IMG/VR virus record: IMGVR_UViG_3300027804_000001
Coordinates: 128,001 to 192,000 of that record
From: a virus
Taxonomy: Duplodnaviria > Caudoviricetes
DNA: 64,000 nt
Reading direction: 5' to 3' (one strand)
The translations under genes were made by a program, and so were the position numbers. This document shows, piece by piece, positions 11,258-63,627 of this stretch. The notes beneath the pieces were generated by a model, which saw only the letters and a list, made by a program, of their open reading frames with translations, did no database searches and was not told where the DNA came from. The stretch's first letter is position 1, and each line of letters begins with the position of its first letter.

Positions 11258-11364
11258 AATGATTTTTTTTTAATGTTAAAATTTTATTAACATCACAAAT
11301 ATATGAAGAATATTTTGAATAAAAAAATAATATAGAAAAAAGTTTTCCACATTATTATATAATG

Positions 11365-12429
11365 TTATTTACATTTTACATAATGTAGATATTCAAATGT
11401 TTCGATTACCTTGTGGTTTCGAGCATCATCTTTATCGGATTTATATCTTTGGTATTTCTTTGTGAAGATTCCATATTCACCCTTCTTACTCATGATGTCC
11501 TCAATTTCTTTTAAAGATAATAAACCCTCATTATTATAACTAAGAAAAATAAATTTACAATTACAATTTTGTATTAAATCGCTAAACGCATCTTTGACTT
11601 CACGTTTTTTCGAATACTTAGACGAAGTCTTTTGTTTTCTATTACCAGTTTTTCCTACAATTTCAGGATTATCATATTTAGCAATTGTTTCAAGTACATG
11701 GTAATTGTCTCCATATACCCTATTGTTATATGGCGGGTCTAAATACATTATATCACATTCAATTTCTTTAACTAATTGATTAGAATCTTTATTATAAACC
11801 ACATTTGATTTATCACTTAATATAGTTTCAATTGGTTCGATAGTAACTTTATCTAATGCACTCTTCTTAAAACTTTTTAAATAGGCACCATAAACAGATG
11901 TTGTATTTGCTTTCTTGTCTACCGATTCAATTATGCTTGATAATAAAAAGAAATATTCATTTTCATTAATTAAATTATTTGATTTCCACTCCTCAATTTT
12001 AATTCTTGACGTGTCACATATTTTAGCATTCTCATCTGAGAAATATAATCTAACATGTTGTTCATTGACGGTACCACCTGATGCGTAATTGTTATAAACA
12101 AATCCTTCTACAAGAGGTAAATTATTTAGGTAATCACAAACAATTTTTGATTTCTTCTCAATCTCACAATTGATAAGTTCTGGAATAATTTGATATAAAT
12201 TTTCAAATTCAAAAAGATTATTATTAACAATTAAATGTCTATTCAACACATAACTATAATATTGTAAATCGTTTGAAATTATTTGATATCCTAATTTTTT
12301 AAAATGTGCACCAACTATTCCCGTTCCTGAAAATAAATCACAAAAGATATATTCTTTATCACCAACCACACTTTTAATTGATGTTTCTAAAAAATCCAAT
12401 AACCTAAATTTACTACCAATATAATTCAT
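11365..12429 (-). CDS. DNA adenine (N6) methyltransferase, D12/FokI-like class
   Basis: MNYIGSK, DLFSGTG (SAM-binding), YLDPPY (catalytic) and FLSYNNEG. Confidence 0.9.
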   Translation of the reverse strand: MNYIGSKFRLLDFLETSIKSVVGDKEYIFCDLFSGTGIVGAHFKKLGYQIISNDLQYYSYVLNRHLIVNNNLFEFENLYQIIPELINCEIEKKSKIVCDYLNNLPLVEGFVYNNYASGGTVNEQHVRLYFSDENAKICDTSRIKIEEWKSNNLINENEYFFLLSSIIESVDKKANTTSVYGAYLKSFKKSALDKVTIEPIETILSDKSNVVYNKDSNQLVKEIECDIMYLDPPYNNRVYGDNYHVLETIAKYDNPEIVGKTGNRKQKTSSKYSKKREVKDAFSDLIQNCNCKFIFLSYNNEGLLSLKEIEDIMSKKGEYGIFTKKYQRYKSDKDDARNHKVIETFEYLHYVKCK

Positions 12430-27136: not shown

Positions 27137-27182
27137 ATATAAAATATATGTGGATTAATTTACAATGTATATGGTTTTTTAT

Positions 27183-29039
27183 TTAGACTAAATCCATAAA
27201 ATCTATTCCAAATAATTTAGTGGGCTCTTTTTTTGTAATCTCGACACCGTTTATTTTTACCGGTACTTTAAGTTTTTCAGATGCATGTAATAATCCAAGT
27301 CGTGCGTATTTTTTTACTTTTTGTGACAATTCATTATCTATCACATATTCCATATCCACAGGTGGTTGTTTATTACAAAAATGTCTTGCTTGTAATAGTT
27401 GACCGTTTTGACAATCAAACTCACACGTTACTCTATCCATAGAATCTTCTGTTCTTAAAGAAATAATAATAGACTTTTCTTTATCGGCATAAGTTGCAAC
27501 ACAATGATGCATAAATTTACCCTCCTCAACATATTCTTCCTCTCTTTTCAATATCATAGGATAAAAAGAAACACCGGTATCACCATAGTTTGGTAAATTT
27601 ATTTTCAATGGTATTGGTTTTTCAATATCCTCAATCATCTTCTCACTAAACTTATATTCAATCACCCAACCTTTATTGATGGCGGTTATAATCTTTGATA
27701 AATCTGTATGTTCAACAGAAAATTCATCGAATGTTTTTGCTTTCATATAAACGTCAGCATCATATTCTCTAACGGTGTTTATCATTCTAAAATGGTCATC
27801 AAATAACTGAATAAATCTATCAGATAATATTCCATCTGACCTATAATTTTGTGAATTTGCAATCTTAATTAAATTCTCCTTTTCAATATCTAATAACAGT
27901 GGGTTATTATTTGTATTATGGATTAATTGGAATTTATTGGTGTTGTAATCCACATTACTATTTTTTTTAAGATATGAATTTTCAAAAACAACGGGGTTCA
28001 AATTTGCAATATATTTTGTGTAATCATTACCAAAATACTTACAAAATCTAACCAAACCAATCAAATCAATATTTGGATATTCATGTAAAATTTTAATTGT
28101 GTATTTGGATTTAATTCCAAACATATCCAAAATAGATGCTATTAATTTCCTATCGTTCTTTTTGAGAAATTTTTCTGTTGGGTAAAAGTTATTAATCCAA
28201 AACACCACATCTCCGTTTGGTACCTTTATTTTTTTAAGTTCTATAAACTTTTGTGTGAAATCATTTAAGAATACATCGGTATTAGATGAGTATGATGCAC
28301 ACCCAATCATTCCTAATGACTTTTGTATATTCTTTGTAAACTCATAGTCGTCGAATACTTTTTTAAATTCGTTGTACACTCTTGAATTTGTATTAACATA
28401 GTTCTTAGGTTCAAAAAATGAACGACCGGTCGTAATCATTTTCAACATTCTGAACGAATTGGTCCTGAATTGTGTGGCGTTGGTTTTACTGGTTTTACCT
28501 ATAATACACGTGGTAAAGTTTCCCGTTTTCAAGTTTATTGTTAACGATTGAACATCGTATCTTTTTCTGAAATAGATGCAATTAAACCCTCTGGTTTTTG
28601 TTTGAACATAAAGTTTTATGGTTAGTTTATCTCCATGTAATCGTATTGATCTTTCAAGTGTATATAGAACAATCTCAGAAAGTGGTTTACCATAATGATT
28701 TTTAATGTGTCTATCTTTAGTTGTTTCAAAAGTATTTCCACCGTTCTTTTCACGATATAGATATTCAAAAGACATTCTTTCCTGTACATCTTCATTACTG
28801 GTTAGATAATGTACTTTCTTTTTCTTTTTTTTAGGTAACGTAAAAATTTTCCCTTTTTTGTTAATGTTGAGGTCTCTCGTAATTGATTTGATTGAAAATA
28901 CATCGGTATCCTCTTCATCCAATAAATCCAAAGAATCGTTAAACTGTCTCCGTAATCTTTTCTCATCTGAAATTAGACAATAATCCTTAAAAGGGGTTAT
29001 AAGTGCATAGGAAAATTTTTGAGTTAATATGTCTACCAT
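27183..29039 (-). CDS. PcfJ-like domain protein (tandem paralog)
   Basis: C-terminal EEEYVEEGKFMHHCVATY...QARHFCN. Shares KNDxKxxxxxLDxxGIKSK with its neighbour. Confidence 0.75.
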   Translation of the reverse strand: MVDILTQKFSYALITPFKDYCLISDEKRLRRQFNDSLDLLDEEDTDVFSIKSITRDLNINKKGKIFTLPKKKKKKVHYLTSNEDVQERMSFEYLYREKNGGNTFETTKDRHIKNHYGKPLSEIVLYTLERSIRLHGDKLTIKLYVQTKTRGFNCIYFRKRYDVQSLTINLKTGNFTTCIIGKTSKTNATQFRTNSFRMLKMITTGRSFFEPKNYVNTNSRVYNEFKKVFDDYEFTKNIQKSLGMIGCASYSSNTDVFLNDFTQKFIELKKIKVPNGDVVFWINNFYPTEKFLKKNDRKLIASILDMFGIKSKYTIKILHEYPNIDLIGLVRFCKYFGNDYTKYIANLNPVVFENSYLKKNSNVDYNTNKFQLIHNTNNNPLLLDIEKENLIKIANSQNYRSDGILSDRFIQLFDDHFRMINTVREYDADVYMKAKTFDEFSVEHTDLSKIITAINKGWVIEYKFSEKMIEDIEKPIPLKINLPNYGDTGVSFYPMILKREEEYVEEGKFMHHCVATYADKEKSIIISLRTEDSMDRVTCEFDCQNGQLLQARHFCNKQPPVDMEYVIDNELSQKVKKYARLGLLHASEKLKVPVKINGVEITKKEPTKLFGIDFMDLV

Positions 29040-44926: not shown

Positions 44927-47900
44927 TTATTGTAATTTAGATTTTATTTCGTCTATTTGTTTTTGTTGTTCTTTTATTGCTTCGATTAATACTGCAATCA
45001 TCTTTTCGTATTTAACAGCCATATAACCGTTGTCTCGAGTTGTTACTATTTCAGGTAACACCTTTTGAACTTCTTGTGCAATCACACCGATGTCGTGACC
45101 TGAATTATCATGTATACCTTCCATTGGAATCCAATCAAACTCATAACCACCTATTGACATTATTTTATCTAATGAACCAACAATCGGTTCGATGTTAGTT
45201 TTTAATCTTTCATCAGAACTTGCGAATGCAATGATATCATTTGACGCCCTAATTAAACCGACAGTTGTTGATGTGGTCGCTCCACCCACAATCAATGCAC
45301 CTGTTACAGCGGTTGTTGATGAGTTCAATGTTGTACCACCATTAATAGTTAATCCTCCAAACGTTGGTGTTGCAGTTGTGTGAATATTTTGAGGAGTTGA
45401 TAACGTTACGCCACCTGTGTTAGCACTTACTGATACTTGGTTTGTTGTACCAGATATTGATGTTACACCCGCGTTGGTTAATGTTACTGAACTACCTAAT
45501 GCTACCGCACCTCCACCACTCATACCTGTTCCGGCTGTTACAGTTACAGATGAATTTGTTAATGAAGAATTACCAATGTTAGTTATTGTATTAGACGCTC
45601 CACTAATAGTTTTATTAGTTAATGTTTGAGCTGCACTAATTAAACCAATTTCAATCTCACTACCTAAAGGTCCTGCTATCCATCTGTCAGTTGTGGTATT
45701 CCATAATAACGAACCTGATACTAACGTTGATGCTGTCGCATCTCTTACAACCAAACCTGCGTTTGTTGCACCTGTACCATTAAGTTGTATAATGTTGTCA
45801 GCAATATTAACAGTTGTTGAGTTTACGGTTGTTTGTGTACCTGATACCACCAAGTTACCACCGATAGTTACTGTTGTACCATCATCGGTTATTGTTGAGT
45901 TACCTACTGTTGTTGCAGATGTGAATTTAACTAAAGTATTGTTTGTTCCTGATACTGAAACTGATGTACCTGATGTACCCGCGGTTCCACTACTACCTGA
46001 AGTTCCTGAACTACCAGAAGAACCTGAACTACCTGATGTTCCAGATGAACCACTAGAACCTGAACTACCAGAAGAACCTGAACTACCTGAAGTACCAGAT
46101 GTTCCTGAAGAACCGTTACTTCCTGATGAACCACTTGTTCCTGAACTACCAGAAGAACCTGAACTACCTGACGTTCCTGAACTACCAGAAGAACCTGAAC
46201 TACCTGAGGTACCCGAAGAACCGTTACTTCCTGATGAACCACTTGTTCCTGAACTACCAGAAGAACCTGAACTACCTGATGTTCCAGATGAACCGTTTGA
46301 ACCTGAACTACCTGATGTTCCAGATGAACCGTTTGAACCTGAACTACCTGATGTTCCAGATGAACCGCTAGAACCTGAACTACCTGAGGTACCAGATGAA
46401 CCACTAGAACCTGAACTACCTGAGGTACCACTTGATCCATTTGAACCTGAAGTACCACTTGATCCACTTGAACCCGATGTTCCTGAAGAACCGCTAGAAC
46501 CAGATGTACCACTAGTTCCTGATGAACCATTACTACCACTTGTTCCTGATGAACCCGATGAACCAGATGTTCCTGAAGAACCGGATGTTCCTGAAGAACC
46601 AGAGCTACCTGAGGTACCTGAAGTACCTGAACTACCAGATGTTCCTGAAGAACCCGATGAACCCGAACTACCAGATGAACCACTAGAACCCGATGTACCA
46701 GATGTTCCTGAAGAACCTGAAGTTCCTGAAGAACCTGAAGTTCCTGATGTACCACTACTACCATTTAAACCCGAAGTACCAGATGTACCCGATGAACCAG
46801 ATGGTGTAGATGCAATTATTAATAATATATTTTGATTATTCGAAAAACTTGAAGATCCACCATTACTTAATAACGTAACAGGTAATGTCCAATATGTTGT
46901 GTTATCAACCGGTGTACCAATTCTCCATCTTTGATAGTTAGTGTGACTTGTTTTGTCTTGTATAATAATTGTTGAACCTGATTGTAGAAATCCAACCAAT
47001 GAATCAATATTGTTATTTAAACCATCAATATCACTAACGTTAATTGAGGTTGATCCTGATTGTGTTACGTTATTCCATGAAATAAATCCACTACCTGGGT
47101 CACTACCATTTTGTGCGTTAGTCTTGGCTTGATAATTGAAGAATGAGTTTGATTGTCCTGAAGTACCACTAGAACCTGATGAACCAGAACTTCCTGAACT
47201 TCCTGATGTACCAGAACTACCTGATGTACCTGCGGTGCCACTAGAACCTGAGGTACCAGAAGTTCCACTACTTCCTGACGAACCTGATGTCCCCGAACTT
47301 CCTGAACTTCCTGATGTACCAGAACTACCTGATGTACCTGAAGTACCTGATGTTCCACTTGTACCTGAGGAACCAGACGTTCCTGATGATCCACTTGTAC
47401 CGGCCGTTCCTGATGTACCAGACGAACCAGAACTTCCCGATGAACCCGAAGTACCAGATGTACCGGATGATCCGCTCGAACCTGAAGTTCCTGAACTTCC
47501 CGATGAACCTGATGTACCAGATGTACCACTAGAACCCGATGTACCAGATGAACCACTTGAACCAGATGAACCACTTGAACCTGATGAACCACTTGAACCT
47601 GATGAACCTGATGTACCAGAAGTTCCTGATGAACCTGATGTACCAGAAGTTCCTGATGAACCTGATGTACCCGAACTACCACTTGTACCGGAAGTACCTG
47701 AACTACCTGAAGTACCAGATGTACCAGAAGTGGCGGCACTATATGAAGTACCATTTATTATTAAACTACCTGTAATATCAACAGAACCACTTACTTGTTG
47801 ATTTCCCCTAAAAAGGTTACTACCAGTAATTGCAAATTCAGTTGAATCTTTGCCGTCTAATAAATTCGAATTATCCGCGAATGATGCCGTTACTGCTCTT

Positions 47901-48034
47901 GATGCACTGACCGCGTTCGATGTTGTACCACTAATCGTTGCATTTATGGTTCCTAATACGGTAAGATCCTGTCTTACCTCCATTGAGCCGGATACTGACA
48001 GGGATCCCGTTATAAATGGTTCAAATATTTTCAT
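44927..48034 (-). CDS. Tail fibre/spike protein with two Gly-X-Ser collagen-like tracts and a C-terminal Peptidase_S74-type chaperone
   Basis: C-terminal SSDERLKTNI...GYEFDW...GVIAQEVQKVLPEIV...VKYEKMIAVLIEAIKEQQ. Long (GTS/GSS/GSN)n tracts. TATTTATT upstream. Confidence 0.88.
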   Translation of the reverse strand: MKIFEPFITGSLSVSGSMEVRQDLTVLGTINATISGTTSNAVSASRAVTASFADNSNLLDGKDSTEFAITGSNLFRGNQQVSGSVDITGSLIINGTSYSAATSGTSGTSGSSGTSGTSGSSGTSGSSGTSGTSGSSGTSGTSGSSGSSGSSGSSGSSGSSGSSGTSGSSGTSGTSGSSGSSGTSGSSGSSGTSGTSGSSGSSGSSGTSGTAGTSGSSGTSGSSGTSGTSGTSGTSGSSGTSGSSGSSGTSGSSGSSGTSGTSGSSGTAGTSGSSGTSGSSGSSGSSGSSGTSGQSNSFFNYQAKTNAQNGSDPGSGFISWNNVTQSGSTSINVSDIDGLNNNIDSLVGFLQSGSTIIIQDKTSHTNYQRWRIGTPVDNTTYWTLPVTLLSNGGSSSFSNNQNILLIIASTPSGSSGTSGTSGLNGSSGTSGTSGSSGTSGSSGTSGTSGSSGSSGSSGSSGSSGTSGSSGTSGTSGSSGSSGTSGSSGTSGSSGSSGTSGSNGSSGTSGTSGSSGSSGTSGSSGSSGTSGSNGSSGTSGSSGSSGSSGTSGSSGSSGSSGTSGSSGSNGSSGTSGSSGSNGSSGTSGSSGSSGSSGTSGSSGSNGSSGTSGSSGSSGSSGTSGSSGSSGSSGTSGSSGSNGSSGTSGTSGSSGSSGSSGSSGSSGTSGSSGSSGSSGTSGSSGTAGTSGTSVSVSGTNNTLVKFTSATTVGNSTITDDGTTVTIGGNLVVSGTQTTVNSTTVNIADNIIQLNGTGATNAGLVVRDATASTLVSGSLLWNTTTDRWIAGPLGSEIEIGLISAAQTLTNKTISGASNTITNIGNSSLTNSSVTVTAGTGMSGGGAVALGSSVTLTNAGVTSISGTTNQVSVSANTGGVTLSTPQNIHTTATPTFGGLTINGGTTLNSSTTAVTGALIVGGATTSTTVGLIRASNDIIAFASSDERLKTNIEPIVGSLDKIMSIGGYEFDWIPMEGIHDNSGHDIGVIAQEVQKVLPEIVTTRDNGYMAVKYEKMIAVLIEAIKEQQKQIDEIKSKLQ
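45962..46801 (-). repeat. Gly-X-Ser repeat tract 2 (~280 aa)
   Basis: Gly at every third residue, degenerate codons, no long exact DNA unit. Confidence 0.9.
47156..47728 (-). repeat. Gly-X-Ser repeat tract 1 (~190 aa)
   Basis: Same pattern as tract 2 (GTS/GSS/GTA). Confidence 0.9.
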
Positions 48035-53634: not shown

Positions 53635-54207
53635 TCAAATCAATTTCTTATCTTTTGTGAAATATTTTGAACCATATGGAAAGGGGATATCACTTTGCAA
53701 TTCGAATATATTCTTCAATTTCTCTATTCCATTTTCATAATACAAATGTTCATATGAAATGGTTGGCAAATCGTTTTGATTTGCAAAATCAATGAGGGTC
53801 TTTTTATTAAATTCTACCTCCTCTTTGAATTTATCATAATCTTCCTTAACAAACACTCTGTCCACATCTTTTTGTGTATAGTTATGATGATATCGATTCT
53901 CTTTACTTGAATACATGTGTGAGATGGTTTGTTCGTGTGTGTTTTCCCTATAAAGACAAAGAATCTTTGTACTTAATTTTAAAATCATACTGTAATTTTG
54001 TTCGGGATACCATAACTCTTTAATGAAATATTTTTTGTTTTCTAACCAGTCAAAGTCCTGTAAGGTTGTATCATTTGTGTAAATGTTAAAATCTGAATTA
54101 AATGGTTCATGAATTACAATGAATTCATTATTAAGTGATTGTTTTATCCAGTTCATTAGATTTTGACCACCAGTTCTATATTGTGCTATAATGGTATATA
54201 ATGTCAT
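53635..54207 (-). CDS. Sulfotransferase-like protein
   Basis: QYRTGGQNL (PAPS loop-like), HEPF, LYRE and ISYEHL. The protein ends KKLI. Confidence 0.55.
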   Translation of the reverse strand: MTLYTIIAQYRTGGQNLMNWIKQSLNNEFIVIHEPFNSDFNIYTNDTTLQDFDWLENKKYFIKELWYPEQNYSMILKLSTKILCLYRENTHEQTISHMYSSKENRYHHNYTQKDVDRVFVKEDYDKFKEEVEFNKKTLIDFANQNDLPTISYEHLYYENGIEKLKNIFELQSDIPFPYGSKYFTKDKKLI

Positions 54208-55274
54208 TATATCATAGTTTTTTTCATATCTAAAAACTCGTGTAGATTATGAAACACAAATGGGTCCTTGGCAACTTTATTAAATTCAATAAGAAAATCA
54301 TTATGATTAGGATGATTAACATCCCATACTTTTAAAAACTCAAATTGTTCATGTGTAAAAGTGCCCCAATTATTTATCTTACCATAAAAAACTTTTGTTT
54401 TCATACCAAAGATACTTTTCATTTGTTCTAAAAAAATACCCATTTCTTTATAGTTAGATTGTTGAACCACAAATGATGTTTTAACTTTTTTCATTTTAGG
54501 TATTGTGGCAATAAATTTAAGATTGGAAATTAAATTTTCCCATTCCCCATTTAATCTAGTTACATTCTCATATGTTTCTTTTGTACCCGCATCTATACTG
54601 ATTTCACATGTTAACACATAAGGATGAATATTTATCATTGATTCCCACATTTCTTTATTCCATAAACTTGCATTAGTATGTAGGTGTATATTTTTAAGTT
54701 TTGGGTACTTCTTAGGATTAAAGTTTCTAAGATAGTTTCTGTATGATACCGATGCAAATGGATCCGCGGTACCCGAACAATAAATTGTTTCTATTGAATT
54801 TGAGAAGGCTTCCTCCATTTCTTCGATTGTGGAATTAATTCTATTAATACCTTCCGAATTTGCAACAATCATTTTAACTCTACAAGATGGACATTTATAA
54901 TTACAAGTTCTATCAAAAGACATTTGTAATATTGTGGGACCATGTTCCATATGTGATTCCTTTTTTTCATAATGTTCTTTAATATAATCAGGTAAATTTT
55001 CAATTTTTTGTATGGGACCTGATGAGTCCATGTTGTAATTTAATAATTGAGCCAAAAATGGACATTGGGTTTTATCACAAAATCTATAGGAACCATCCAT
55101 CACCGATTCTCTAATTTCTATTGCCTCTTTACTATTCCATAAGTCTTTCAATGGAATTTTGTTTGGTAATTCCTTAGTCAACCAACTTGCACAACACATA
55201 AAATTTTTATTTTCATGTATTTCAACTGCTTGAAATGGAACAGTACAAACGTAATTCTTTAAATCAATATCCAT
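54207..55274 (-). CDS. Radical SAM protein with N-terminal SPASM/twitch-like domain
   Basis: CNYKCPSC (CxxxCxxC), CTVPF..CC..DLWNS, SGTADPF and HTNA. The protein ends KTMI. Confidence 0.85.
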   Translation of the reverse strand: MDIDLKNYVCTVPFQAVEIHENKNFMCCASWLTKELPNKIPLKDLWNSKEAIEIRESVMDGSYRFCDKTQCPFLAQLLNYNMDSSGPIQKIENLPDYIKEHYEKKESHMEHGPTILQMSFDRTCNYKCPSCRVKMIVANSEGINRINSTIEEMEEAFSNSIETIYCSGTADPFASVSYRNYLRNFNPKKYPKLKNIHLHTNASLWNKEMWESMINIHPYVLTCEISIDAGTKETYENVTRLNGEWENLISNLKFIATIPKMKKVKTSFVVQQSNYKEMGIFLEQMKSIFGMKTKVFYGKINNWGTFTHEQFEFLKVWDVNHPNHNDFLIEFNKVAKDPFVFHNLHEFLDMKKTMI

Positions 55275-55277
55275 ATT

Positions 55278-55766
55278 TTATAATATAGTTCTTTTTTTAT
55301 TTAATCTCAATCTATTTTCTCCTTTGGGATTAAACAAATCTTCATAATATGTTATAGATATTCCTGTAATATTAGACAATTCTCTTAATTGTATGTCCCA
55401 ATTGATAATATCATTTTTACATTCTTCAAAAACGTTTATTGGGACTTCTTCATATACATATGGATTATTTGAATTGTATTTTTTTGTTTTAGAATAAAAA
55501 GTTTGATATGAGTGTGACTCTATACATTCCCCAATATTTTTTCTTGTTAAAAGAATTACCTCATCAAAATTTTTTAATAATTCTAAATTGTTTGGGTGGT
55601 GGGATACTATTGTTTTTACTACAATATTATCTTCGTCCTTTTTATATTGGATTCTATTTGTACCATCAAAGGGTTCAAACAAAGGTTTTAGATTTTTTTC
55701 CTTCGAAATTTTTTTTAGTAATGACGTAGATCCCGTTCTTGGTAAAGAAATTATGAGGATTCTCAT
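55278..55766 (-). CDS. Sulfotransferase-like protein
   Basis: SLPRTGSTSL, FEPF, LTRKN and TYYEDL. The protein ends KRTIL. Confidence 0.6.
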   Translation of the reverse strand: MRILIISLPRTGSTSLLKKISKEKNLKPLFEPFDGTNRIQYKKDEDNIVVKTIVSHHPNNLELLKNFDEVILLTRKNIGECIESHSYQTFYSKTKKYNSNNPYVYEEVPINVFEECKNDIINWDIQLRELSNITGISITYYEDLFNPKGENRLRLNKKRTIL

Positions 55767-56317
55767 AATAATTTTTTCGTTTTATCTATTTTATAATATA
55801 CAAAGTTAGTATCATTCATCCATATGTTTAAAGCACATCTTAATCCAAAATTAACAGGCATAACACCATGATAAGTTTTGTTACCTTCGAAAGTTATACC
55901 CTCACCAATATTTAAATGTTGAATAACTTCTGAATCCTTTAGATTCACAAATTTGGGGGACAAACAAAAATCCCCATCCTCATAACCATCAGTCAACGAA
56001 ATAACAGTAGTATAGTTCGATGTTGAGTCTAAATGTAAATCCAAAAACCTACCCTCATAGTATCTTGTTAAACTAACATTTATGTTTGTTAAATTAAAAG
56101 AATTAAAATCAAACCAAAAGGAAATTGAACCCTGTTTATATAAACTATTTATATTATTTAATATCTTTTTTTTGAAGTCCTCATCATAAATCCTTCTACA
56201 ATCCCATGTTGTTTGTTCAAAATCATAATATGAAAAAGTTTCACCTTTTTCCATTGCAAAATCTATTATTGATTTACATTCTTCACGAGTAAAAAATTTA
56301 TTTATGGAATAATTCAT
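55763..56317 (-). CDS. 2OG-Fe(II) oxygenase (prolyl-4-hydroxylase-like)
   Basis: LHLD, YHGV and R-x-A. The protein ends KKLL. Confidence 0.8.
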   Translation of the reverse strand: MNYSINKFFTREECKSIIDFAMEKGETFSYYDFEQTTWDCRRIYDEDFKKKILNNINSLYKQGSISFWFDFNSFNLTNINVSLTRYYEGRFLDLHLDSTSNYTTVISLTDGYEDGDFCLSPKFVNLKDSEVIQHLNIGEGITFEGNKTYHGVMPVNFGLRCALNIWMNDTNFVYYKIDKTKKLL

Positions 56318-57135
56318 AATAATAATGAATAAGGTTCTTTTAAATTATAACCCAATAAATTGTTTTTTTGAATAAAATCGTAAATTTCTTCTGCAATTAA
56401 TTTATAACCATTTTTATTAGGATGTTTACCTAATTGAGATTCTGTAAAATGTGAGTTATCTTCCCATACATTTTTTCTGTTCGTTTCAATTAATAAATCT
56501 CTAAATGTTCTATTCTCAAATCCCCAATAATGTTTTCTATTTATTAGATTTGTTTTATCTATTTCTTGATTGATTGGATTTTTTATTAATGAATCAAAAG
56601 CATCACAAAACATATACCTTATTCCCATCTCATTGAACATATGTTGTAGGTAAAAAATATAATTTTGATTTATAATATTGTAATATGTGTCACAATAAAG
56701 ATTTGTTAGGTAGAATTCTTTGTAACTTAAACTCGCCCTATCAAATATTACGTTATTTTCTATTGTTTTATTAAAAATTGGTGTATAAATGTGTTTCTTA
56801 CTTTTATATCTTTCTCCCCAAAAATGCCACTCCCCCTTTGGGAAAAATGGAACATCATCCCTTAAAAAGGATGTCCACATTATTACAATAAAATCTCCTC
56901 GATTTATTTGATTGGATTTTAAACAATGTGAAACGGTCTCAAATATAATGTTATTTGATGCTCCTCCAATACCATTGTTAATGAATTCAACATTTAAAAT
57001 TTCTGAAAGATATCTTGGCCAACAAAACTCTTGTCTTATTTTAGTTCTTTCTTCTGGTGTATCATATTCGAGTTCTTTATTTGAATCCCCGCCAACACCT
57101 TCAGTCCAACTATCTCCAAATGTAAATAATCTCAT
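56314..57135 (-). CDS. SGNH-like protein
   Basis: TFGDSWTEG, NNGIGGASN and KHPNKNG. The protein ends YSLLL. Confidence 0.6.
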   Translation of the reverse strand: MRLFTFGDSWTEGVGGDSNKELEYDTPEERTKIRQEFCWPRYLSEILNVEFINNGIGGASNNIIFETVSHCLKSNQINRGDFIVIMWTSFLRDDVPFFPKGEWHFWGERYKSKKHIYTPIFNKTIENNVIFDRASLSYKEFYLTNLYCDTYYNIINQNYIFYLQHMFNEMGIRYMFCDAFDSLIKNPINQEIDKTNLINRKHYWGFENRTFRDLLIETNRKNVWEDNSHFTESQLGKHPNKNGYKLIAEEIYDFIQKNNLLGYNLKEPYSLLL

Positions 57136-57141
57136 TATGCA

Positions 57142-57279
57142 TTATTGCAAGTGTTTTGCTTTTATTGCATTAATTACCGATTGTACCGCAGTTGATATTT
57201 TTGTTTTAACACCATTTGAAATTGGTGCAATTGTTGGTTTTATAACTTGAGCGGGTCTTTCTGTTCTGATTGTTGACAT
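57142..57279 (-). CDS. Small basic protein, 45 aa (not in ORF track)
   Basis: Manual translation MSTIRTERPAQVIKPTIAPISNGVKTKISTAVQSVINAIKAKHLQ*. Confidence 0.65.
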   Translation of the reverse strand: MSTIRTERPAQVIKPTIAPISNGVKTKISTAVQSVINAIKAKHLQ

Positions 57280-57306
57280 AACTTAAATATTTTTATAATT
57301 TTGATT

Positions 57307-58800
57307 TTATAATTTTGGTGGTAAACCTTGGTTACAACCCGAACAGCTGCTATCATAACAATAGTATCCACATGAATACCATGGACACCAACAACTATTA
57401 TGCATTACACTAAAAATACCATCACCTAAATCAACAAGAAATAAATCCGATGGCTCAAAGTCTAATCCATAAATCATCATACTTGAATGTTCCATTTCTA
57501 AATTGGTTATTTCAATAGTGGTTAACTCTTGTGTATTAGAGTCTGTTACTACTAATTTATCACCAATGTACATGTTATTTAATTTTTCAAATCTTGTCGA
57601 TAGTGATCCTGATTCTTCAATATAATACACACATGATGGAGAATCAACCCAAGTTTTACCATCTGAAGTAGTAATCCTAATAAAAATAGTATCAATTGAT
57701 GATGAAACAATCCCTTCTAATGAGGATGACATTTGTGTTAACGTTTCGTTACTTTGTGCTAAACTACCACTCCATCCCAACACGTCTAACTTACCTTGCT
57801 CAAAATAAGCAGCATGATTATCATTATAATCGATAAAGTCAATTGTTCTAATTAAACTTCCTAATTGTATGTTTGAAACATTTACTAATGACCCCGTATA
57901 ATCAATGATATTTGAATCAATATCAGTGTGGTAACTGTCCATTTTTTGGTTTATACCAACCTCTTTTGTGATATATTTTTGTCTAGTTTTTTGTGTTAAT
58001 TTTGTTGTATCATTTACAAATTCATTAAGACCAAAATTTAAAGGTACGACGGTTGATTGTCTGTATCCACCCAAATTTATAACGTCTAAATTACTACCAT
58101 AAACAATATCAATACTTCTAATTATTGAATATTTTCCATCCACCAAATTGTCTGTTGAAAATAAAAACTCCTGTAATAGGTAATTTTCAGATAAATTACC
58201 CTTCAACGAAGTTAATTGGGTTGCATCGTTTAATATATGTAATTCAGGGTATAGTGCTGTGTCATAATTAGGTATACGAGCTTTAATAACTATATTCGGG
58301 TTACTGAGATTTGAAAAGTCAACAGAATCTAAAGTGTCCATACCTAAATTATTTGAAACAAAGTAGGTCTTTGGAACGTAGGTACTACCACTCATTAAAT
58401 TAAAAAATCCAAATTTATCGGCACAGTATGAATCATCAATTAAGGCCGTTGTGTCAAAAGATTGTCTTAATATAAACTTATTAGGTGCGTCTTCAATATA
58501 AGGTACCGTTATAGAATTAGTTGGTACGGTATATTCAGAAAATTGTATGTTATTTTCTGAACATTTTTGTTGTAATTTTTGTTTAAAAACATAGGGTGAG
58601 TTTGAGGGAGAGTGTGAGTCATTCTCGGTGAAAATAAAATGAAATTCACTTATATTATTGTCCACTAACATCCCAAATAACGAATCGTAATCTAATAACT
58701 CTGCACCACTATTGTATATGGTTGTATTGGTATTTGTTTCTAATATTTTTACATCATCATTGTGTTCTAACAAATCAGTACCAAGAATAATTCCTTTCAT
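57307..58800 (-). CDS. Circularly permuted ATP-grasp-like domain, Hint domain and Cys/Trp/Tyr-rich C-terminal peptide
   Basis: N-terminal D-x11-E-x-N (GTD...ILETN), VIKAR and LLQEF. Hint-like TGSLVNVSNIQLGSLIRT...IGDKL...YGLDFEPSDLFLV...VMHN. Then SCWCPWYSCGYYCYDSSCSGCNQGLPPKL. Confidence 0.6.
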   Translation of the reverse strand: MKGIILGTDLLEHNDDVKILETNTNTTIYNSGAELLDYDSLFGMLVDNNISEFHFIFTENDSHSPSNSPYVFKQKLQQKCSENNIQFSEYTVPTNSITVPYIEDAPNKFILRQSFDTTALIDDSYCADKFGFFNLMSGSTYVPKTYFVSNNLGMDTLDSVDFSNLSNPNIVIKARIPNYDTALYPELHILNDATQLTSLKGNLSENYLLQEFLFSTDNLVDGKYSIIRSIDIVYGSNLDVINLGGYRQSTVVPLNFGLNEFVNDTTKLTQKTRQKYITKEVGINQKMDSYHTDIDSNIIDYTGSLVNVSNIQLGSLIRTIDFIDYNDNHAAYFEQGKLDVLGWSGSLAQSNETLTQMSSSLEGIVSSSIDTIFIRITTSDGKTWVDSPSCVYYIEESGSLSTRFEKLNNMYIGDKLVVTDSNTQELTTIEITNLEMEHSSMMIYGLDFEPSDLFLVDLGDGIFSVMHNSCWCPWYSCGYYCYDSSCSGCNQGLPPKL

Positions 58801-58896
58801 TTTTTTGTGTTAAGTTTTATATTAATAAATATACAATTTATTAAAAAGATAATCAATGTTTATCTTAAAATAATATATATACGTATATACGTATGT

Positions 58897-59202
58897 TTAA
58901 ATTATTGTTTTATTATTTTTTTCAATTTGGGGTTCTAAAAGACCGTTGTCAGAATCGCCCCATTTTTTAAGTGGACAGGAATTGTAAATGTTAGAAAATA
59001 TTTTTTTATTTAATGGACACCCACATCTTAAACAAATTTCTGACCACCTATTATTTTTAATTAATGGTTTCTTATACTCACATGTTGAACAAATTGAATA
59101 CCTTTTTTCTGCTAGTTCTTTTTGTTCCTTAGTAGGATTTTTGGCACTTAACCAAGAGTTAAAGATTTCCTTATAGTTATATTCTATTCCGTTAATTTTC
59201 AT
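58897..59202 (-). CDS. Small Cys-rich zinc-binding protein (DUF6171-like)
   Basis: RYSICSTCE...CLRCGCPL...SCPLKKW. The protein ends KTII. Confidence 0.6.
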   Translation of the reverse strand: MKINGIEYNYKEIFNSWLSAKNPTKEQKELAEKRYSICSTCEYKKPLIKNNRWSEICLRCGCPLNKKIFSNIYNSCPLKKWGDSDNGLLEPQIEKNNKTII

Positions 59203-59990
59203 AATAAAGTCTTTGTTTCTTTAACAATATCGTAATAATCATAAATACCATCATAGGTATTTTTAAACTCTTCATTTAATTTTATGAAACAGTCCACATT
59301 TTTACTAGAATTGGTTTTTTCCAATTTAAAAGGTTTATTTATTTTAATACTAACCCATTTTTCTAATTCTTTTATATTGTCAAAATCAAACCAAATTATA
59401 TCTTTATTATGATGATGATAATTCGAGGTCGGCGTTAATAATATTTCAAAAATATTAAGAATATAGGAATCTATTTTTTTTTCTTTATCAAAAATAGATT
59501 CACCCACATCTATTCTCGTATCATTTAGTTGAACTCTTTTTTTTATAAAATTGTTTTTAATTAAAAAATCGTTTATCACATTTACTCTGCTTTCCTTACT
59601 CATTAAATCGTCGGTTGAGAAAAAAAATAATTCTTTTATATCGATATTTTTTAAATGTTCACTTACATAATGTGCTCCAATTCTTTGGGTATCGAAAATA
59701 ATTTGTTTAAATAATGAAAAAAACCTATCGTATTTATTTCTTTTTACACATAAAATTGGATAATTGTCCCCAAATTTTTTTTGTAAATCAAATAAACTTT
59801 CGTGTCCATGTTTTATTAAATCCATTAAGTTACTCTTTTCTATATTTTTTAAATCAATTTTATTATTGTTTTCATTTATAGAATTAGTTACAAATTTAAC
59901 ATTTAAATTATTTAATATACATGAATAATGAAAAGATGTGGATGCACATCTAGGTATTGATATATAAAAAAATTTATTGTCTACTAACAT
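59199..59990 (-). CDS. Sulfotransferase family 2-like protein
   Basis: FFYISIPRCASTS, HGH, RNKYDRFFS and KTNSS. The protein ends KTLL. Confidence 0.6.
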   Translation of the reverse strand: MLVDNKFFYISIPRCASTSFHYSCILNNLNVKFVTNSINENNNKIDLKNIEKSNLMDLIKHGHESLFDLQKKFGDNYPILCVKRNKYDRFFSLFKQIIFDTQRIGAHYVSEHLKNIDIKELFFFSTDDLMSKESRVNVINDFLIKNNFIKKRVQLNDTRIDVGESIFDKEKKIDSYILNIFEILLTPTSNYHHHNKDIIWFDFDNIKELEKWVSIKINKPFKLEKTNSSKNVDCFIKLNEEFKNTYDGIYDYYDIVKETKTLL

Positions 59991-60610
59991 TATAGTAAAT
60001 TTTTGGGGCTTTTACTTTTGGCTGCAAAGTTGAAATTTATGATAAACCTATCACCATCCAATGGATAATTGGCGTGATGAGCTAGTCTACCGTCAAAAAC
60101 AAAACATCTTCCCATTTTTGGGGACACTCTTTTTAGTAGAGAATAAGAATCATAATTAACGTTATTAAAGTTTTCTTGGAAGGATTGAACGTTATCTCCA
60201 TTTACGTTTGTATAAAGACAGGTGTCACCTGTCGAATCGTTAACATAATAGACCACCGCAATGTGTTCATTTATCCTATCGTAATGTAATAAATGCATCG
60301 GATTGTGTTCAAAACTAATAGGTTGGGTCCAGTTAATTTTCCATCTATAATTTTGAACAAATTCTAAGTTTATTTTTTCCGAAATTCTAATTTGGAAATC
60401 ACTGATTAAATCTTTAATCTTATCATCCTTACAGTTATTTTGAGGGTGGACTTTGGCGGGGAATTTATGTGTACTTAATTTACCACCATAATATCCCGTA
60501 ACATTTTCCATGAATTCCCATTTTATGTTTTGATTTTTAACATATTCATATAAAATCTCTTGATTTTCTTTTGAAATTATATCGTCAAATATGTAATAAT
60601 TTTTAATCAT
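59990..60610 (-). CDS. 2OG-Fe(II) oxygenase
   Basis: LHYD, YYVNDSTGDT, LAHHA and R-F-I-I-N. The protein ends KNLL. Confidence 0.75.
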   Translation of the reverse strand: MIKNYYIFDDIISKENQEILYEYVKNQNIKWEFMENVTGYYGGKLSTHKFPAKVHPQNNCKDDKIKDLISDFQIRISEKINLEFVQNYRWKINWTQPISFEHNPMHLLHYDRINEHIAVVYYVNDSTGDTCLYTNVNGDNVQSFQENFNNVNYDSYSLLKRVSPKMGRCFVFDGRLAHHANYPLDGDRFIINFNFAAKSKSPKNLL

Positions 60611-61260
60611 AATAAACTTTTCTCTTTTTTAATATAATCAAACCCAACATTACCGGCCACAACAATTCTATCAATAGTTGAATTCGGAGCATTATTTGGT
60701 GAGTGTGGCATATCGGCCTCCATTATTATTAAATCATCATTCTCAGGTCTAATCCAATATTCTTTTTTATTTTTTCCTCTAAAATATAACACACCATCTT
60801 CTCCATTCATTACATCCGGCATTTGAATGTAATAGACATAAGTATAATGAGGGGTAAATGATTTCATTTCTTTATTTATATCAGTATGAACGTGAAATTT
60901 GTCAACCCCTTTTAACTCTTCATGTTTGAATTGAATTTGAACCGGATTCGTTGATCTCACAACATTAACCCAAACCTCCGTATTGATTTTATTATACGTG
61001 GTATTTGTTTCTTCGTAAAGTTTTTTACAAGAATCTATCCCAATTTGTATTATTTCATCTAATTTTGTTTCAATTTTAACCTCACCTAAATAATTCAAAT
61101 TTTTATTCCATTCTTTTTTATACCCAAATCCATCTGTTTTAGTATCTGGTTGTGATTCAATAACGGAGTTTGCCAATTTTAATAATTCGGATTTGTCAGA
61201 TACTCGGTTTAATTTAGTTTTCCAAATATATGTGGTCTCGTCAAAATATAATTTTTCCAT
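60607..61260 (-). CDS. 2OG-Fe(II) oxygenase (TIGR02466-like)
   Basis: VHTD, YVYYIQMP, MPHSP and RIVVAGN. The protein ends KSLL. Confidence 0.7.
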   Translation of the reverse strand: MEKLYFDETTYIWKTKLNRVSDKSELLKLANSVIESQPDTKTDGFGYKKEWNKNLNYLGEVKIETKLDEIIQIGIDSCKKLYEETNTTYNKINTEVWVNVVRSTNPVQIQFKHEELKGVDKFHVHTDINKEMKSFTPHYTYVYYIQMPDVMNGEDGVLYFRGKNKKEYWIRPENDDLIIMEADMPHSPNNAPNSTIDRIVVAGNVGFDYIKKEKSLL

Positions 61261-62510
61261 TAAATTATGTTTTTAAACTTACCTTTTTTATTTTTTTTGT
61301 AGACCATATCATAATTGTAAATCAGAAATGGTAATTTGTCTTCTGTCCAATATTCAAATTCAAAAGATTTCAATAAATCAGTGTCGTTTTTTAACGTTAA
61401 TTTATTATCATTATCCAAGATGGATTTAAGTTTTGTTGGTATGGGGGCATTATACGCATCTTTCCAAAATTCGGTATCTAATCTTTCATTAAGATAATGA
61501 TACCTAACAAACATCATATTTTGTTCATTTGTTTCGGCACAAATTTTATTAAACATGTCTCTATAGGAAGTATCAAATTCGAAATCAATTAGTCTTTTTA
61601 ATTGTATAATAGTAGACATTAATGATGTTGCTTCCAACGGTTCTAAAAAACCATAAGACAATCCGATTGAAATACTATTACCTATCCAACTCCTTTTAAA
61701 TGTACCAGCTTTGAAGTCAAAAACTTTTTGTATTGTTATTTCATGTCCTAAATGTTCTTCTACTTCTTTTTTTGCGTCCTCAACGGAGACGTATTTATCA
61801 TTAAATGCATATCCACACCCCAATCTATGTTGTAGTGGTATTTGAAACATCCATCCACAATTCATTGCACACAAGTATGTGTGAGTCAAATCTTTGTAAG
61901 AAATGGATTTCATCTGAGGTAAAAAGAAACCAAATGCTTTATTAACTAAAAGATATTCTGAATAATCAATCCAACTTTCTTTATGGACACCACTAATAAT
62001 CAATCTAGCAAAACCACTACAATCGAATACAAAATCTAAATTAATAATTTCTCCGTTTGAAAGTTCAATATTATTTATGATTTCATTTGTATTATTTATT
62101 TTAATAACTTCTCCGTCTATCCAATTTACTCCCCTTCCTAATGCAATATTTTTAAAATATTCTGAGACTTTCCTAGCATCAAAGTGAAATGCAGAATAAC
62201 TTCTTACATCGTTTGTTTGTTTATTGTTTTGATGAAATAAGTGTTCTGATTCACTTCCTTTGTGTGTCCAATTAATTAATTGAAGTCCATTTTTGGTTGT
62301 TGATCCCGTTTTTTCTAAAAATTCTTTTACGTTTATATCTAATAATTTAAGAAATAAACCGAAATTAGATGTACCACCTTCACCAGCACCTAATATCCCA
62401 ATTTTAGAACTTTCAATTAGAGTAACTTTTGTGTCTTTCCAAAACTTTTGTACACTTAACGCAGTTGCCCATCCCGCAGTCCCTCCTCCAATTATCACAA
62501 CATTTTTCAT
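61260..62510 (-). CDS. Flavin-dependent halogenase-family (tryptophan halogenase-like) protein
   Basis: GGGTAGW, GAGEG, TTKNG (catalytic Lys position), DCSGF, GWMFQIP (WxWxIP variant) and GFLEPLEATS. The protein ends KNII. Confidence 0.8.
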   Translation of the reverse strand: MKNVVIIGGGTAGWATALSVQKFWKDTKVTLIESSKIGILGAGEGGTSNFGLFLKLLDINVKEFLEKTGSTTKNGLQLINWTHKGSESEHLFHQNNKQTNDVRSYSAFHFDARKVSEYFKNIALGRGVNWIDGEVIKINNTNEIINNIELSNGEIINLDFVFDCSGFARLIISGVHKESWIDYSEYLLVNKAFGFFLPQMKSISYKDLTHTYLCAMNCGWMFQIPLQHRLGCGYAFNDKYVSVEDAKKEVEEHLGHEITIQKVFDFKAGTFKRSWIGNSISIGLSYGFLEPLEATSLMSTIIQLKRLIDFEFDTSYRDMFNKICAETNEQNMMFVRYHYLNERLDTEFWKDAYNAPIPTKLKSILDNDNKLTLKNDTDLLKSFEFEYWTEDKLPFLIYNYDMVYKKNKKGKFKNII

Positions 62511-63076
62511 AATAAATTAATTTTTTTTATTGACGAAGGCCACACATTTATTGAATATCTTTTACCACTTACAATTGGTTCTACCGAATGTGTAATGTTG
62601 GATTCAAATATAAAAACACTTCCTTTTATTTTTGGTACGTTATATTCGGTTCCATCTAATATATATTTCACAAAACCACCATCATATTCGTCATTTAATT
62701 GAATAATAAAAGTTAATGTGGCACCATTTATTATCTCATGATTATCTTCGTGCCACTCTAAAAAATCATCTTTGTTATAACGATTAAATGAATATTTTAA
62801 AACTTTGACATATTCAATAGAATTAAGTGGTTTTAATCTATTACATGTGTTTATTATTTTTTTTGTTTGGTGTTCTAATATTGGGTCTAATAAAACCTCA
62901 TTGACAAAATAACAACCCATTCTTTTATTACCTTTATATTCCAAATTAGAATCGATTAGTTTACCTTTTACTATTTTAGATGACTTCATTTCTTTCAATG
63001 ACATCGACTCACCCAAATTTATTAGATAATCACACTCATCGTTGGTTAAAAAATTCTCAATCAATTTAGTGTACAT
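62507..63076 (-). CDS. 2OG-Fe(II) oxygenase (P4H-like)
   Basis: WHED, YDGG, THSVEP and RYS. The protein ends KINLL. Confidence 0.82.
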   Translation of the reverse strand: MYTKLIENFLTNDECDYLINLGESMSLKEMKSSKIVKGKLIDSNLEYKGNKRMGCYFVNEVLLDPILEHQTKKIINTCNRLKPLNSIEYVKVLKYSFNRYNKDDFLEWHEDNHEIINGATLTFIIQLNDEYDGGFVKYILDGTEYNVPKIKGSVFIFESNITHSVEPIVSGKRYSINVWPSSIKKINLL

Positions 63077-63078
63077 AA

Positions 63079-63627
63079 TTAGATTAAACTTTTAATTTTA
63101 TTTTCAATTTTTTGCAATCCAACCCAATTAACTATTGAATATCTGGTACCACTAATTATAGGTGTTATTCTATGTAATTTGTTTGATGGGAATAAAAATA
63201 AATTTCCAGCACCCTCTTCTAATTTTAAGTTTTCTTTATCTCCAACAATTTCAAAATTTCCACCGGTGTATTCGTCGTTTAATTGGATGACGGCTGAGTA
63301 GAACCTTTCGGGTCGGATTTCAATTGTTGAATCAACATGCCAATCATAATAACCACCAATTTCATATTGAGTGAATTGAAATTTACTTAAGTTGGTTACT
63401 GTATGTCCATTTATGGGCAATTTATCTCTAAGAACTTCTTTTAATTTTTCGTTTAAAAAACCTAAATTATCAATTCCTGCCACATTAGATTTTCTACCGT
63501 CTTTTGAATCTCCATAAACATCTGCCGGTTTTAATTCCAATTCGACTAAACATTTATTTAGAATGAAATTACATTCTTCTTTTGATAAAAAATTTTTTAT
63601 GGTAAAAATATTATTCATTTTTTCCAA
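63079..63627 (-). CDS. 2OG-Fe(II) oxygenase (PKHD/P4H-like)
   Basis: WHVD, YTGG, LHRITP and RYSIVNW. The protein ends KSLI. Confidence 0.85.
   Translation of the reverse strand: MEKMNNIFTIKNFLSKEECNFILNKCLVELELKPADVYGDSKDGRKSNVAGIDNLGFLNEKLKEVLRDKLPINGHTVTNLSKFQFTQYEIGGYYDWHVDSTIEIRPERFYSAVIQLNDEYTGGNFEIVGDKENLKLEEGAGNLFLFPSNKLHRITPIISGTRYSIVNWVGLQKIENKIKSLI

Follow-up and report, generated by a model that had tools for sequence, protein, structure and literature searches.

A freshwater phage ATP-grasp–Hint fusion protein and its cysteine-rich, possibly self-released C-terminal peptide

The stretch of DNA analysed here (64,000 nucleotides, referred to as the window) belongs to the IMG/VR virus record IMGVR_UViG_3300027804_000001, which has 180,831 bases, is judged to be about 54% complete, and comes from an uncultured freshwater jumbo phage. 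On its minus strand, the open reading frame (ORF) at 57307-58800 translates to 497 amino acids (aa) plus a stop codon. The product is a fusion protein, in which a minimal ATP-grasp amide ligase is followed by a Hint domain ending in His-Asn, and then by a short cysteine-rich tail. The best reading of this arrangement, which we consider to have about an even chance of being right, is that the tail is a polymorphic peptide which the protein releases from itself by cyclisation of the Asn. The parts are of known kinds; their combination, the small subunit that goes with them and the polymorphic disulfide-type cargo are new. The fusion gene and the features on which the argument depends are as follows.

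57307..58800, minus strand: ligase-Hint-Cys-tail fusion protein, the whole ORF (ORF and translation)
57955..58800, minus strand: minimal GspS/YgiC-type (circularly permuted) ATP-grasp amide-ligase domain, residues 1-282 (VIA-align)
57397..57939, minus strand: Hint domain without Cys1 or the block-B TxxH, ending in His467-Asn468, residues 288-468 (VIA-align, Foldseek, profile)
57310..57396, minus strand: six-Cys, Trp/Tyr-rich tail of 29 aa, the putative released peptide, residues 469-497 (low model confidence at 475-492)
57142..57279, minus strand: partner protein of 45 aa with a C-terminal K-x-K-H-L motif, 27 nt downstream of the fusion gene
58897..59202, minus strand: Cys-rich zinc-ribbon-like protein of 101 aa (phrog_13558, E 2.7e-8)
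58824..58831, minus strand: promoter-like motif TATTTATT, in the 96-nt intergenic region upstream of the fusion ORF

A sequence-only reading of this ORF had proposed a GspS-like ATP-grasp domain joined to a Hint domain, and the details it gave are all correct in the translation: D9, E21 and N23, VIKAR (residues 170-174), LLQEF (residues 208-212), the position of the His-Asn, the Ser-Cys that follows it, and the composition of the tail. Structure prediction bears out both folds. The fusion protein was modelled using AlphaFold2 on an alignment of 126 family sequences, extending down to about 20% identity, which is also the basis of the conservation counts given below. The model has a predicted local distance difference test (pLDDT) score of 90.3 and a predicted template modelling (pTM) score of 0.86, with disorder only at residues 475-492.

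For the Hint domain, the best structural match found using VIA-align is the bacterial intein-like (BIL) domain of C. thermocellum (2lwy), with Z 14.9 and a root-mean-square deviation of 1.9 Å over 136 of 138 residues. Tetrahymena BIL2 (6tmm, Z 14.8) and hedgehog (1at0, Z 14.1) are close behind. About 30 of the 50 PDB matches listed are Hint domains with Z of at least 10, the Foldseek probability for Hint is 1.00, and from sequence the family profile matches the MjaKlbA intein (E 2e-8). In the superposition, Cys258 of hedgehog falls on His291, and the final Hint residue falls on Asn468. His467-Asn468 is encoded at 57402-57397 and is followed by Ser-Cys.

The pattern of conservation within this domain carries the argument. 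Position 291, which is Hint position 1, is never Cys in the family, being His in 49 sequences, Lys in 18, Gly in 12 and other residues, including Ser and Ile, in the rest; the missing N-terminal nucleophile that had been noticed in this one protein is therefore a feature of the whole family. The block-B positions read D-x-P-S, with no conserved His, and TxxH is missing throughout. The Cys or Ser at position 1 together with TxxH, as required by a class 1 intein, is thus not found. A class 3 mechanism is ruled out, because block F:4 (position 445, occupied by Thr, Ser, Glu, Asn or Gly) has no conserved Cys. The equivalent of the block-F His, at position 452, is Asp in 86 sequences and His in 22, and the +1 position after Asn468 (Ala, Pro, Ser, Tyr, Val or Ile) has no conserved nucleophile. 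The His-Asn has nonetheless been kept: Asn468 is retained in 124 of the 126 sequences and His467 in 119, and His-Asn is found in 233 of the 239 sequences that reach this column.

With Cys1 and TxxH lost and His-Asn kept, the only reaction still open to the Hint domain is Asn cyclisation, and cleavage rather than splicing is what would be expected of it. Because His-Asn is preserved down to about 20% identity while Cys1 and TxxH are gone, the conservation pattern indicates that selection has kept only those parts of the Hint domain that catalyse C-terminal cleavage. In inteins, C-terminal cleavage is catalysed by the terminal Asn, the penultimate His and one residue of block F, and it can happen off-pathway, without the N-terminal steps (PMC4031507).

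The tail that would be released contains 6 Cys, 2 Trp and 4 Tyr in its 29 residues, and has an average mass of 3271.7 Da. In 58 distinct close homologues it has the framework C-W-C-P-W..C-G..C....C..C, with C470, W471, C472, P473, W474, C477, G478, C481, C486, C489 and K496 each retained in at least 93%, and with entropies of mostly 1.1-2.8 bits at the remaining positions. Family-wide, the Cys-rich parts range from 21 to 175 aa and are unalignable. The suggestion that the C-terminal peptide would be hypervariable therefore holds across the family; in the close clade what is seen is a fixed scaffold with variable loops. Among the distant Cys-rich tails, 97 of 98 have an even number of Cys (4-16), and the sole exception is a different, Cys-poor domain. 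Such even counts, many of them not divisible by four, suggest cysteines paired in disulfides, and hence an oxidising environment. A metal cluster is disfavoured, counts of 6, 10 and 14 not being multiples of four.

It is worth adding that the penultimate Lys496 is retained in 98% of the 58 close homologues. The fusion protein was described earlier as lacking the C-terminal tag of its neighbours (see below); it is not wholly without a C-terminal signature.

Five architectures follow the His-Asn.

Cys-rich tail only: 86 of 126
Cys-rich tail, then a Peptidase_S74-like (S74-like) module with an S-D-x3-K dyad motif: 13 of 126
Cys-rich tail (ending in Gly in 4 of 6), then a canonical Hint with Cys1, TxxHP and His-Asn: 6 of 126
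One or two canonical Hints directly: 12 of 126
Stub of 3-7 residues: 9 of 126

The S74-like module matches Pfam PF13884 weakly (E 0.007), whereas the canonical Hints give clear Pfam matches, some of them scored as PT-HINT. Both kinds of cap would also remove themselves, leaving both ends of the peptide free or activated. These capped relatives, like the small partner gene and the zinc-ribbon-like gene, are additions to what the sequence-only reading had described.

Put together, the proposed sequence of events is that the fusion protein folds and takes up its 45-aa partner, the product of the next gene downstream, and that Asn468 then cyclises, cutting the bond that follows it. The freed product would be a 3.27-kDa peptide with a new N-terminus, which would form three disulfides in an oxidising environment, for example after lysis. 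Before this, it may be decorated by the Trp halogenase, the prolyl-hydroxylase-like 2-oxoglutarate (2OG) oxygenases, the sulfotransferase-like proteins and the radical S-adenosylmethionine (SAM) protein encoded nearby. The ligase, together with the small subunit, would form an amide bond at the expense of ATP, and the tail is probably not its only substrate. The overall logic would be that of pretoxin-Hint and polymorphic cargo systems, in which a Hint releases a polymorphic cargo from the C-terminal end of a conserved N-terminal machine.

The ligase domain is a stripped-down one, with what appears to be an intact active-site signature. By VIA-align its closest structures are YgiC (7uka, Z 10.1, 202 residues aligned, model 1-280 on chain 94-378), GspS (2io7, Z 9.3, model 2-281 on 311-608) and eukaryotic glutathione synthetases (Z 8.6-8.9), and the E-64 ligase Cp1B is also among the matches; RimK-type ATP-grasps come lower, at Z 5.9. 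Its neighbours in the protein atlas carry ATP-grasp_3, TTL, GshA and GSP_synth, and the Pfam GSP_synth model itself gave no match to the fusion protein. D9, E21, N23, R112, D122, K173 and R228 are each retained in 124-125 of the 126 sequences. The alignment ranges, rather than a residue-level superposition, put D9, E21 and N23 near GspS positions 318, 330 and 332, which we take to be Mg ligands. The ligase would fit an action on the exposed C-terminus of the tail, since its closest relatives use peptide C-terminal carboxylates: YgiC and YjfC, in the account of Pederick et al. (2023) given in PMC12568646, ligate spermidine to peptide carboxylates.

The small partner protein is as constant as the tails are changeable. 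Neighbouring genes were counted in 87 homologous loci, many of them truncated, and an equivalent partner ORF (30-50 aa family-wide) lies directly downstream of the fusion gene in 82 of them, or in 84 of 86 by ORF call; it also adjoins relatives at only 26-45% identity. Its mean column identity is 57%, with the motifs ERP, IK and KHL. After KHL the ends vary (Ser, Gly, Gly-Glu, Asn, Gln or nothing), and a sub-branch ends in IKDDI..S. Three predictions of the complex with the fusion protein agreed, at an ipSAE of 0.79, whereas none of three controls rose above 0.00. This mark is reached by 58 of 80 solved complexes and by 2 of 110 mismatched pairs, a calibration that is approximate here because our own alignments were used.

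In the predicted complex, the partner contacts the ligase at residues 6, 8, 10, 12 and 22, at the odd residues of 223-233, and within 237-251 and 120-141, and it contacts the Hint domain at 372, 374, 388, 407-410, 434 and 436. The catalytic residues D9, E21, N23 and R228 are on the opposite face of the sheet. Contacts thus alternate with catalytic residues along the strands, which places the partner, in this model, across the back of the ligase sheet, from where it bridges to the Hint domain. On the model, then, it reads as a subunit and not as a substrate, and it may take the place of an N-terminal region found in YgiC and GspS but missing here. A role as the carboxylate substrate of the ligase is unsupported, given the back-of-sheet interface and the variable last residues. 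An immunity protein or the core of a RiPP (a peptide made by the ribosome and modified after translation) is ruled out, the partner being conserved while the tails vary.

The zinc-ribbon-like protein (about 95 aa family-wide) is encoded at 83 of the 87 loci, and also beside the distant relatives L003, L005, L006, L090, L091, L092, L094 and L095. The constant core of the system therefore consists of the fusion protein, the small protein and the zinc-ribbon-like protein.

The family is large and has been seen only on phage-like contigs. Its close homologues number 658, each about 495 aa long, and clustering at 50% gives 267 representatives, which are full length down to about 22% identity. No member carries a name in the databases searched. 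The fusion protein alone gave no match against Pfam, PHROGs or the PDB sequences, and Pfam at E up to 10 returned nothing except a chance domain of unknown function (DUF). A tblastn search of 50,697 deposited phage genomes gave no match, and a search of prokaryotes using close-clade patterns, with one genome for each of 185,579 species, gave no relative. Scans of related loci gave nothing for P0178 and only an unrelated Hint fragment for P0260. A literature search for an ATP-grasp and Hint fusion, or for a Hint-released RiPP or peptide precursor, found no description.

The fusion gene is present in a single copy in the virus record, and a 333,612-base contig also carries a neighbouring protein of identical sequence. 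DNA of the stretch is found in freshwater metagenomes. Pfam Gp23 (the T4-type capsid) gave no match in the virus record, a result that is uninformative because the control genomes gave none either. Upstream of the gene, TATTTATT ends 23 nt before the ATG. It had been described as a late-type motif. Of 53 distinct homologous loci, 48 have a TATTTAT, mostly 25-29 nt upstream of the ATG, compared with 2.8% of background 80-nt windows. An over-representation of TATTTATT in the window is ruled out, with 12 found and 25 expected, and an alignment of four upstream regions of the window showed no common element.

The stretch is present in two freshwater metatranscriptomes, from two studies. In run X3, a 2106-nt contig spans 56688-58793 at 100% identity, and takes in the fusion gene except for its first 7 nt, the small partner gene and the beginning of the hydrolase gene; a contig of the second run ends at 58784. 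In the RNA libraries, several of the flanking genes are without contigs; the coverage by DNA runs is even throughout. The RNA contigs fit a transcript start just upstream of the fusion gene, although contigs alone can neither prove transcription nor map transcript ends. A simple scan for terminator-like hairpins found one inside the partner gene (57249-57266, plus strand) and one inside the tail-coding end (57362-57390, minus strand); in 4 kb it found 5, against 0.7 expected.

The fusion gene lies in a cluster of genes for candidate tailoring enzymes, as follows.

54207..55274, minus strand: radical SAM protein of 355 aa (PF04055 E 1e-4, under the cut-off, 22.9 against 29.5 bits)
55278..55766, minus strand: protein of 162 aa with a sulfotransferase-type P-loop start (Sulfotransfer_3 E 0.17 only; 51 of 87 loci)
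55763..56317, minus strand: 2OG-Fe(II) oxygenase of 184 aa (PF13640 E 3.9e-5, just under the cut-off; 68 of 87 loci)
56314..57135, minus strand: SGNH/GDSL-like hydrolase (DUF6071) of 273 aa (Pfam; 53 of 87 loci)
59199..59990, minus strand: sulfotransferase-like protein of 263 aa (Pfam Sulfotransfer_2 E 0.049; 81 of 87 loci, and distant loci too)
59990..61260, minus strand: two 2OG-Fe(II) oxygenase paralogues of 206 and 217 aa (Pfam; 17 and 71 of 87 loci)
61260..62510, minus strand: flavin-dependent tryptophan halogenase of 416 aa (PF04820 E 4.2e-81; 63 of 87 loci)
62507..63627, minus strand: two further 2OG-Fe(II) oxygenases of 189 and 182 aa (Pfam)

The halogenase, 2OG oxygenases, sulfotransferase-like proteins and radical SAM protein, named earlier as flanking enzymes that might act on the peptide, are indeed conserved neighbours, including beside relatives at 25-45% identity. 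Among the distant relatives, 2OG oxygenases are found at L003, L004, L090, L091 and L094, sulfotransferase-like proteins at L003, L006, L090, L091 and L093, and halogenases at L003, L093 and the P0152 locus. Copies of the 162-aa P-loop protein in L091 and L093 are 47% identical. The radical SAM protein has 56% identical copies in the same two loci (L091 14598-15638 and L093 14462-15400), where the fusion protein is only 35-41% identical, and sequence comparison thus indicates that the radical SAM protein evolves more slowly than the fusion protein it accompanies. SET-domain proteins (the protein lysine methyltransferase family) occur at L004 3753-4139 and L091 13128-13502, and an APS kinase in L093, where 7856-8299 is listed with these genes. 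They hint that the substrates of the cluster include protein lysine, and that sulfate donor is made locally.

The substrates that had been assigned to individual enzymes fare less well. The 263-aa protein (AlphaFold2 pLDDT 85.9) has a sulfotransferase-like fold, with the top 12 VIA matches all sulfotransferases and NDST1 the best at a middling Z of 7.9, and Foldseek found nothing at E 0.001 or better. It is nearer to carbohydrate sulfotransferases (Z 7.9-6.2) than to tyrosylprotein sulfotransferases (Z 4.4), all of these scores being middling, which weakens the case for its acting on the tail. An action of the radical SAM protein on the tail cysteines was also suggested; the even Cys numbers favour disulfides over thioethers.

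Twelve unrelated proteins of the cluster (53635-63627, minus strand) end in a basic residue, any residue and two aliphatic residues (KKLL, KTLL, KNLL, KSLL, KTMI, KTII, KNII and similar). The last codons of these genes are mostly TTA TTA TGA or ATA ATT TAA TG, and the stop overlaps the next ATG. The ending is retained in the family of the 263-aa protein despite a different downstream gene (L006, L091 and L093). Either a tag at the protein level or a signal for translational coupling could lie behind it. Elsewhere in the window, a collagen-repeat protein of 1035 aa (44927-48034, minus strand; collagen Pfam E 1.9e-65, with a C-terminal Peptidase_S74 at E 2.7e-18), whose gene lies in a local G+C peak (43% against about 29%), is likely to be a fibre. 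Two adjacent large proteins of 464 and 618 aa, at 25742-29039 on the minus strand, have PcfJ-like domains, and a D12 adenine methyltransferase and a GHKL-ATPase protein are encoded at 9680-12429.

A number of observations weigh against release of the peptide or against its modification by the neighbouring enzymes. Cleavage is inferred here from conservation and fold. The equivalent of the block-F Asp (F:4), position 445, is not conserved, and the residue after Asn468 is variable and is Pro in 15 of the 126 sequences; Pro after the Asn disfavours cleavage by inteins. In many inteins, moreover, Asn cyclisation is slow or is coupled to earlier steps (PMC4031507), which the Hint domain here cannot perform. 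The members without a Cys-rich peptide, which have stubs or canonical Hints only (21 of 126), retain the full ligase signature and the His-Asn, and one of these cargo-less members (L004) also has the small protein. It follows that peptide release is not the whole function, and that the ligase probably has a function independent of the tail. The earlier proposal that the ligase would ligate or cyclise the tail is thus unlikely to describe its only purpose, and its role is the weakest link in the self-release reading. The tail is disordered in the model, so that contact between tail and ligase is neither supported nor refuted by the geometry.

The neighbourhood and the RNA data add further points on this side. 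One relative occurs without the tailoring enzymes: L095 (51-kb contig, 1-21602) has a Cys-rich tail, a 46-aa partner ending in KHLI, the zinc-ribbon-like gene and sugar-modifying genes, while genes for an oxygenase, a halogenase or a radical SAM protein are absent from the 10 kb on either side. This goes part of the way towards a refutation named beforehand, that homologues occur without any tailoring enzymes beside them. A Trp in the tail predicts a nearby halogenase only weakly: halogenases adjoin 5 of 6 Trp-containing tails and 0 of 3 Trp-free tails with enough context, a comparison confounded by relatedness and contradicted by L090. Instead of the tail, the cluster's enzymes, the prolyl-hydroxylase-like oxygenases among them, might serve the collagen fibre or the glycan genes nearby, the window having many glycosyltransferases. 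DNA carry-over is possible in the RNA-library contigs.

On a rival reading, the bond after Asn468 is never cut. The tail would then be a small disulfide-bonded or metal-binding knob that, for example, anchors the ligase to a partner or to the virion, and the His-Asn would be structural. The missing N-terminal steps, which often license Asn cyclisation, are in keeping with this, as are the fixed framework of the close-clade tail, the fibre-type S74-like chaperone module that 13 of the 126 relatives have after the tail, and the S74 fibre genes nearby. We regard it as unlikely, though deserving serious attention, since retention of His and Asn alongside the loss of Cys1 and TxxH is what would be expected if only the C-terminal reaction were selected, since Cys counts of 6, 10 and 14 do not suit simple Cys4 metal sites, and since unalignable tails of such different lengths are unlike a fixed structural element. 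Alternatively, the extension might be a plug of any sequence, itself functionless, that blocks the ligase as in a zymogen until the Hint removes it. This would account for the interchangeable tails, Hints, S74-like modules and stubs beside a constant ligase and His-Asn. It is nevertheless highly improbable: a functionless plug would preserve neither the even numbers of Cys seen in 97 of 98 lineages nor the Cys/Trp/Pro/Gly framework of the close clade, and stubs of 3-7 residues could hardly block anything.

Two further explanations give the ligase the leading part. It could extend the C-terminus of either the tail or the partner by an amino acid or a polyamine, with the neighbouring enzymes tailoring the appended group and the Hint or the SGNH hydrolase releasing the product; peptide aminoacyl-tRNA ligase (PEARL)/ammosamide and LysW-type carrier pathways are analogues of such chemistry on a scaffold peptide. 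The closest folds (YgiC, GspS and glutathione synthetases) act on peptide C-terminal carboxylates, self-removing S74-like and Hint caps in relatives would expose a free or activated tail C-terminus, the small protein combines conservation with a predicted complex, the cluster encodes oxygenases and a hydrolase as well as a Trp halogenase, and L004 keeps the ligase and the small protein without a Cys tail. We still think this rather improbable, because the last residues of the small protein vary, unlike a C-terminal acceptor site, because its predicted contacts are opposite the catalytic face, as befits a subunit rather than a substrate, and because one locus (L095) lacks the tailoring enzymes. 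Conjugation of the released or activated peptide to other proteins, in the manner of the Tetrahymena BIL-ubiquitin-like (BUBL) loci, with the basic-x-Leu-Leu enzymes of the cluster or virion fibres as candidate targets, seems very improbable. It would fit the relatives in which a Hint(HN), a peptide with Gly at its end and a (Cys)Hint follow one another, as they do in BIL-Ubl-BIL, and it would suit the fused amide ligase and the conserved C-terminal tag common to the neighbours; BIL2, one of the best structural matches, forms an isopeptide bond without ATP (PMC8616854). However, the flanking-Hint layout is found in only 6 of the 126 sequences and the protein of the window has no second Hint, no target is evident, and the common tag may stem from overlapping stop and start codons (TTATGA).

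Self-release of a polymorphic peptide by Asn cyclisation therefore remains our preferred explanation. It can be extended, at the price of becoming a decidedly long shot, to the proposal that freshwater jumbo phages make conotoxin-like, disulfide-rich peptides, modified by halogenation, hydroxylation and sulfation, using a self-cutting ligase-Hint leader of 468 residues, that the Hint-peptide-Hint relatives give head-to-tail cyclic peptides and are natural counterparts of engineered split-intein (SICLOPPS) cassettes, and that the fused ATP-grasp cyclises the uncapped forms with ATP.

Should the cut prove real, the proteins would form a large self-processing family confined to phages, with hundreds of near copies in freshwater metagenomes, and each would deliver a polymorphic disulfide-rich peptide without a protease. 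It would be a new route to peptide natural products, using a self-removing enzymatic leader. Hint domains would gain a further role, and phages would be seen to make a novel class of extracellular peptides, whose targets might, speculatively, be host receptors, competitors or grazers. The minimal ATP-grasp with its detachable 45-aa subunit is an uncharacterised type of ligase, and the Hint-peptide-Hint relatives could serve as natural cassettes for peptide release or cyclisation.

Among known systems, the BIL and PT-HINT proteins have the same Hint fold, with the C. thermocellum BIL domain the best match, and a common grammar of conserved N-terminal part, Hint and variable C-terminal cargo, here represented by the five architectures after a constant core of 468 residues. 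The Hint of the phage family differs in lacking Cys1 and TxxH throughout. Compared with PT-HINT proteins, the N-terminal part is an enzyme and not a secretion or trafficking domain, and the cargo is a disulfide-type peptide of 21-175 aa and not a toxin enzyme. The small downstream gene, conserved while the tails change, is the opposite of an immunity gene; none is evident near the fusion gene, although no search aimed at one was made. The Peptidase_S74 chaperone of phage fibres and endosialidases has a counterpart in the S-D-x3-K modules that end some relatives, where it lies behind a Cys-rich peptide and not behind a fibre shaft, and it is absent from the fusion protein of the window.

The ligase has the same motif order as YgiC/YjfC, GspS and glutathione synthetase, with the D...E-x-N metal-binding strands first. 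It differs from YgiC and GspS in that some 90-300 residues before the core are missing, with a separate 45-aa protein predicted to lie on the sheet, and in being fused to a Hint domain. The BUBL proteins of Tetrahymena resemble the relatives P0130-P0133, which have a Hint(HN), a small domain ending in Gly and a (Cys)Hint. The protein of the window has the first Hint only, the enclosed module of the relatives is a Cys-rich peptide and not a ubiquitin fold, and the phage protein has an ATP-dependent ligase whereas BUBL conjugation works without ATP (PMC8616854).

Much as in RiPPs such as the graspetides and microviridins, the system may have a variable core beside a conserved recognition part and tailoring enzymes. 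It differs from them in that the leader would be a self-removing enzyme of 468 residues, and in that one relative (L095) has no tailoring genes; the graspetide enzymes are moreover RimK-type ATP-grasps, whereas the one here is of the GspS type. In conotoxins, halogenation of Trp, hydroxylation of Pro and sulfation form an established set of modifications.

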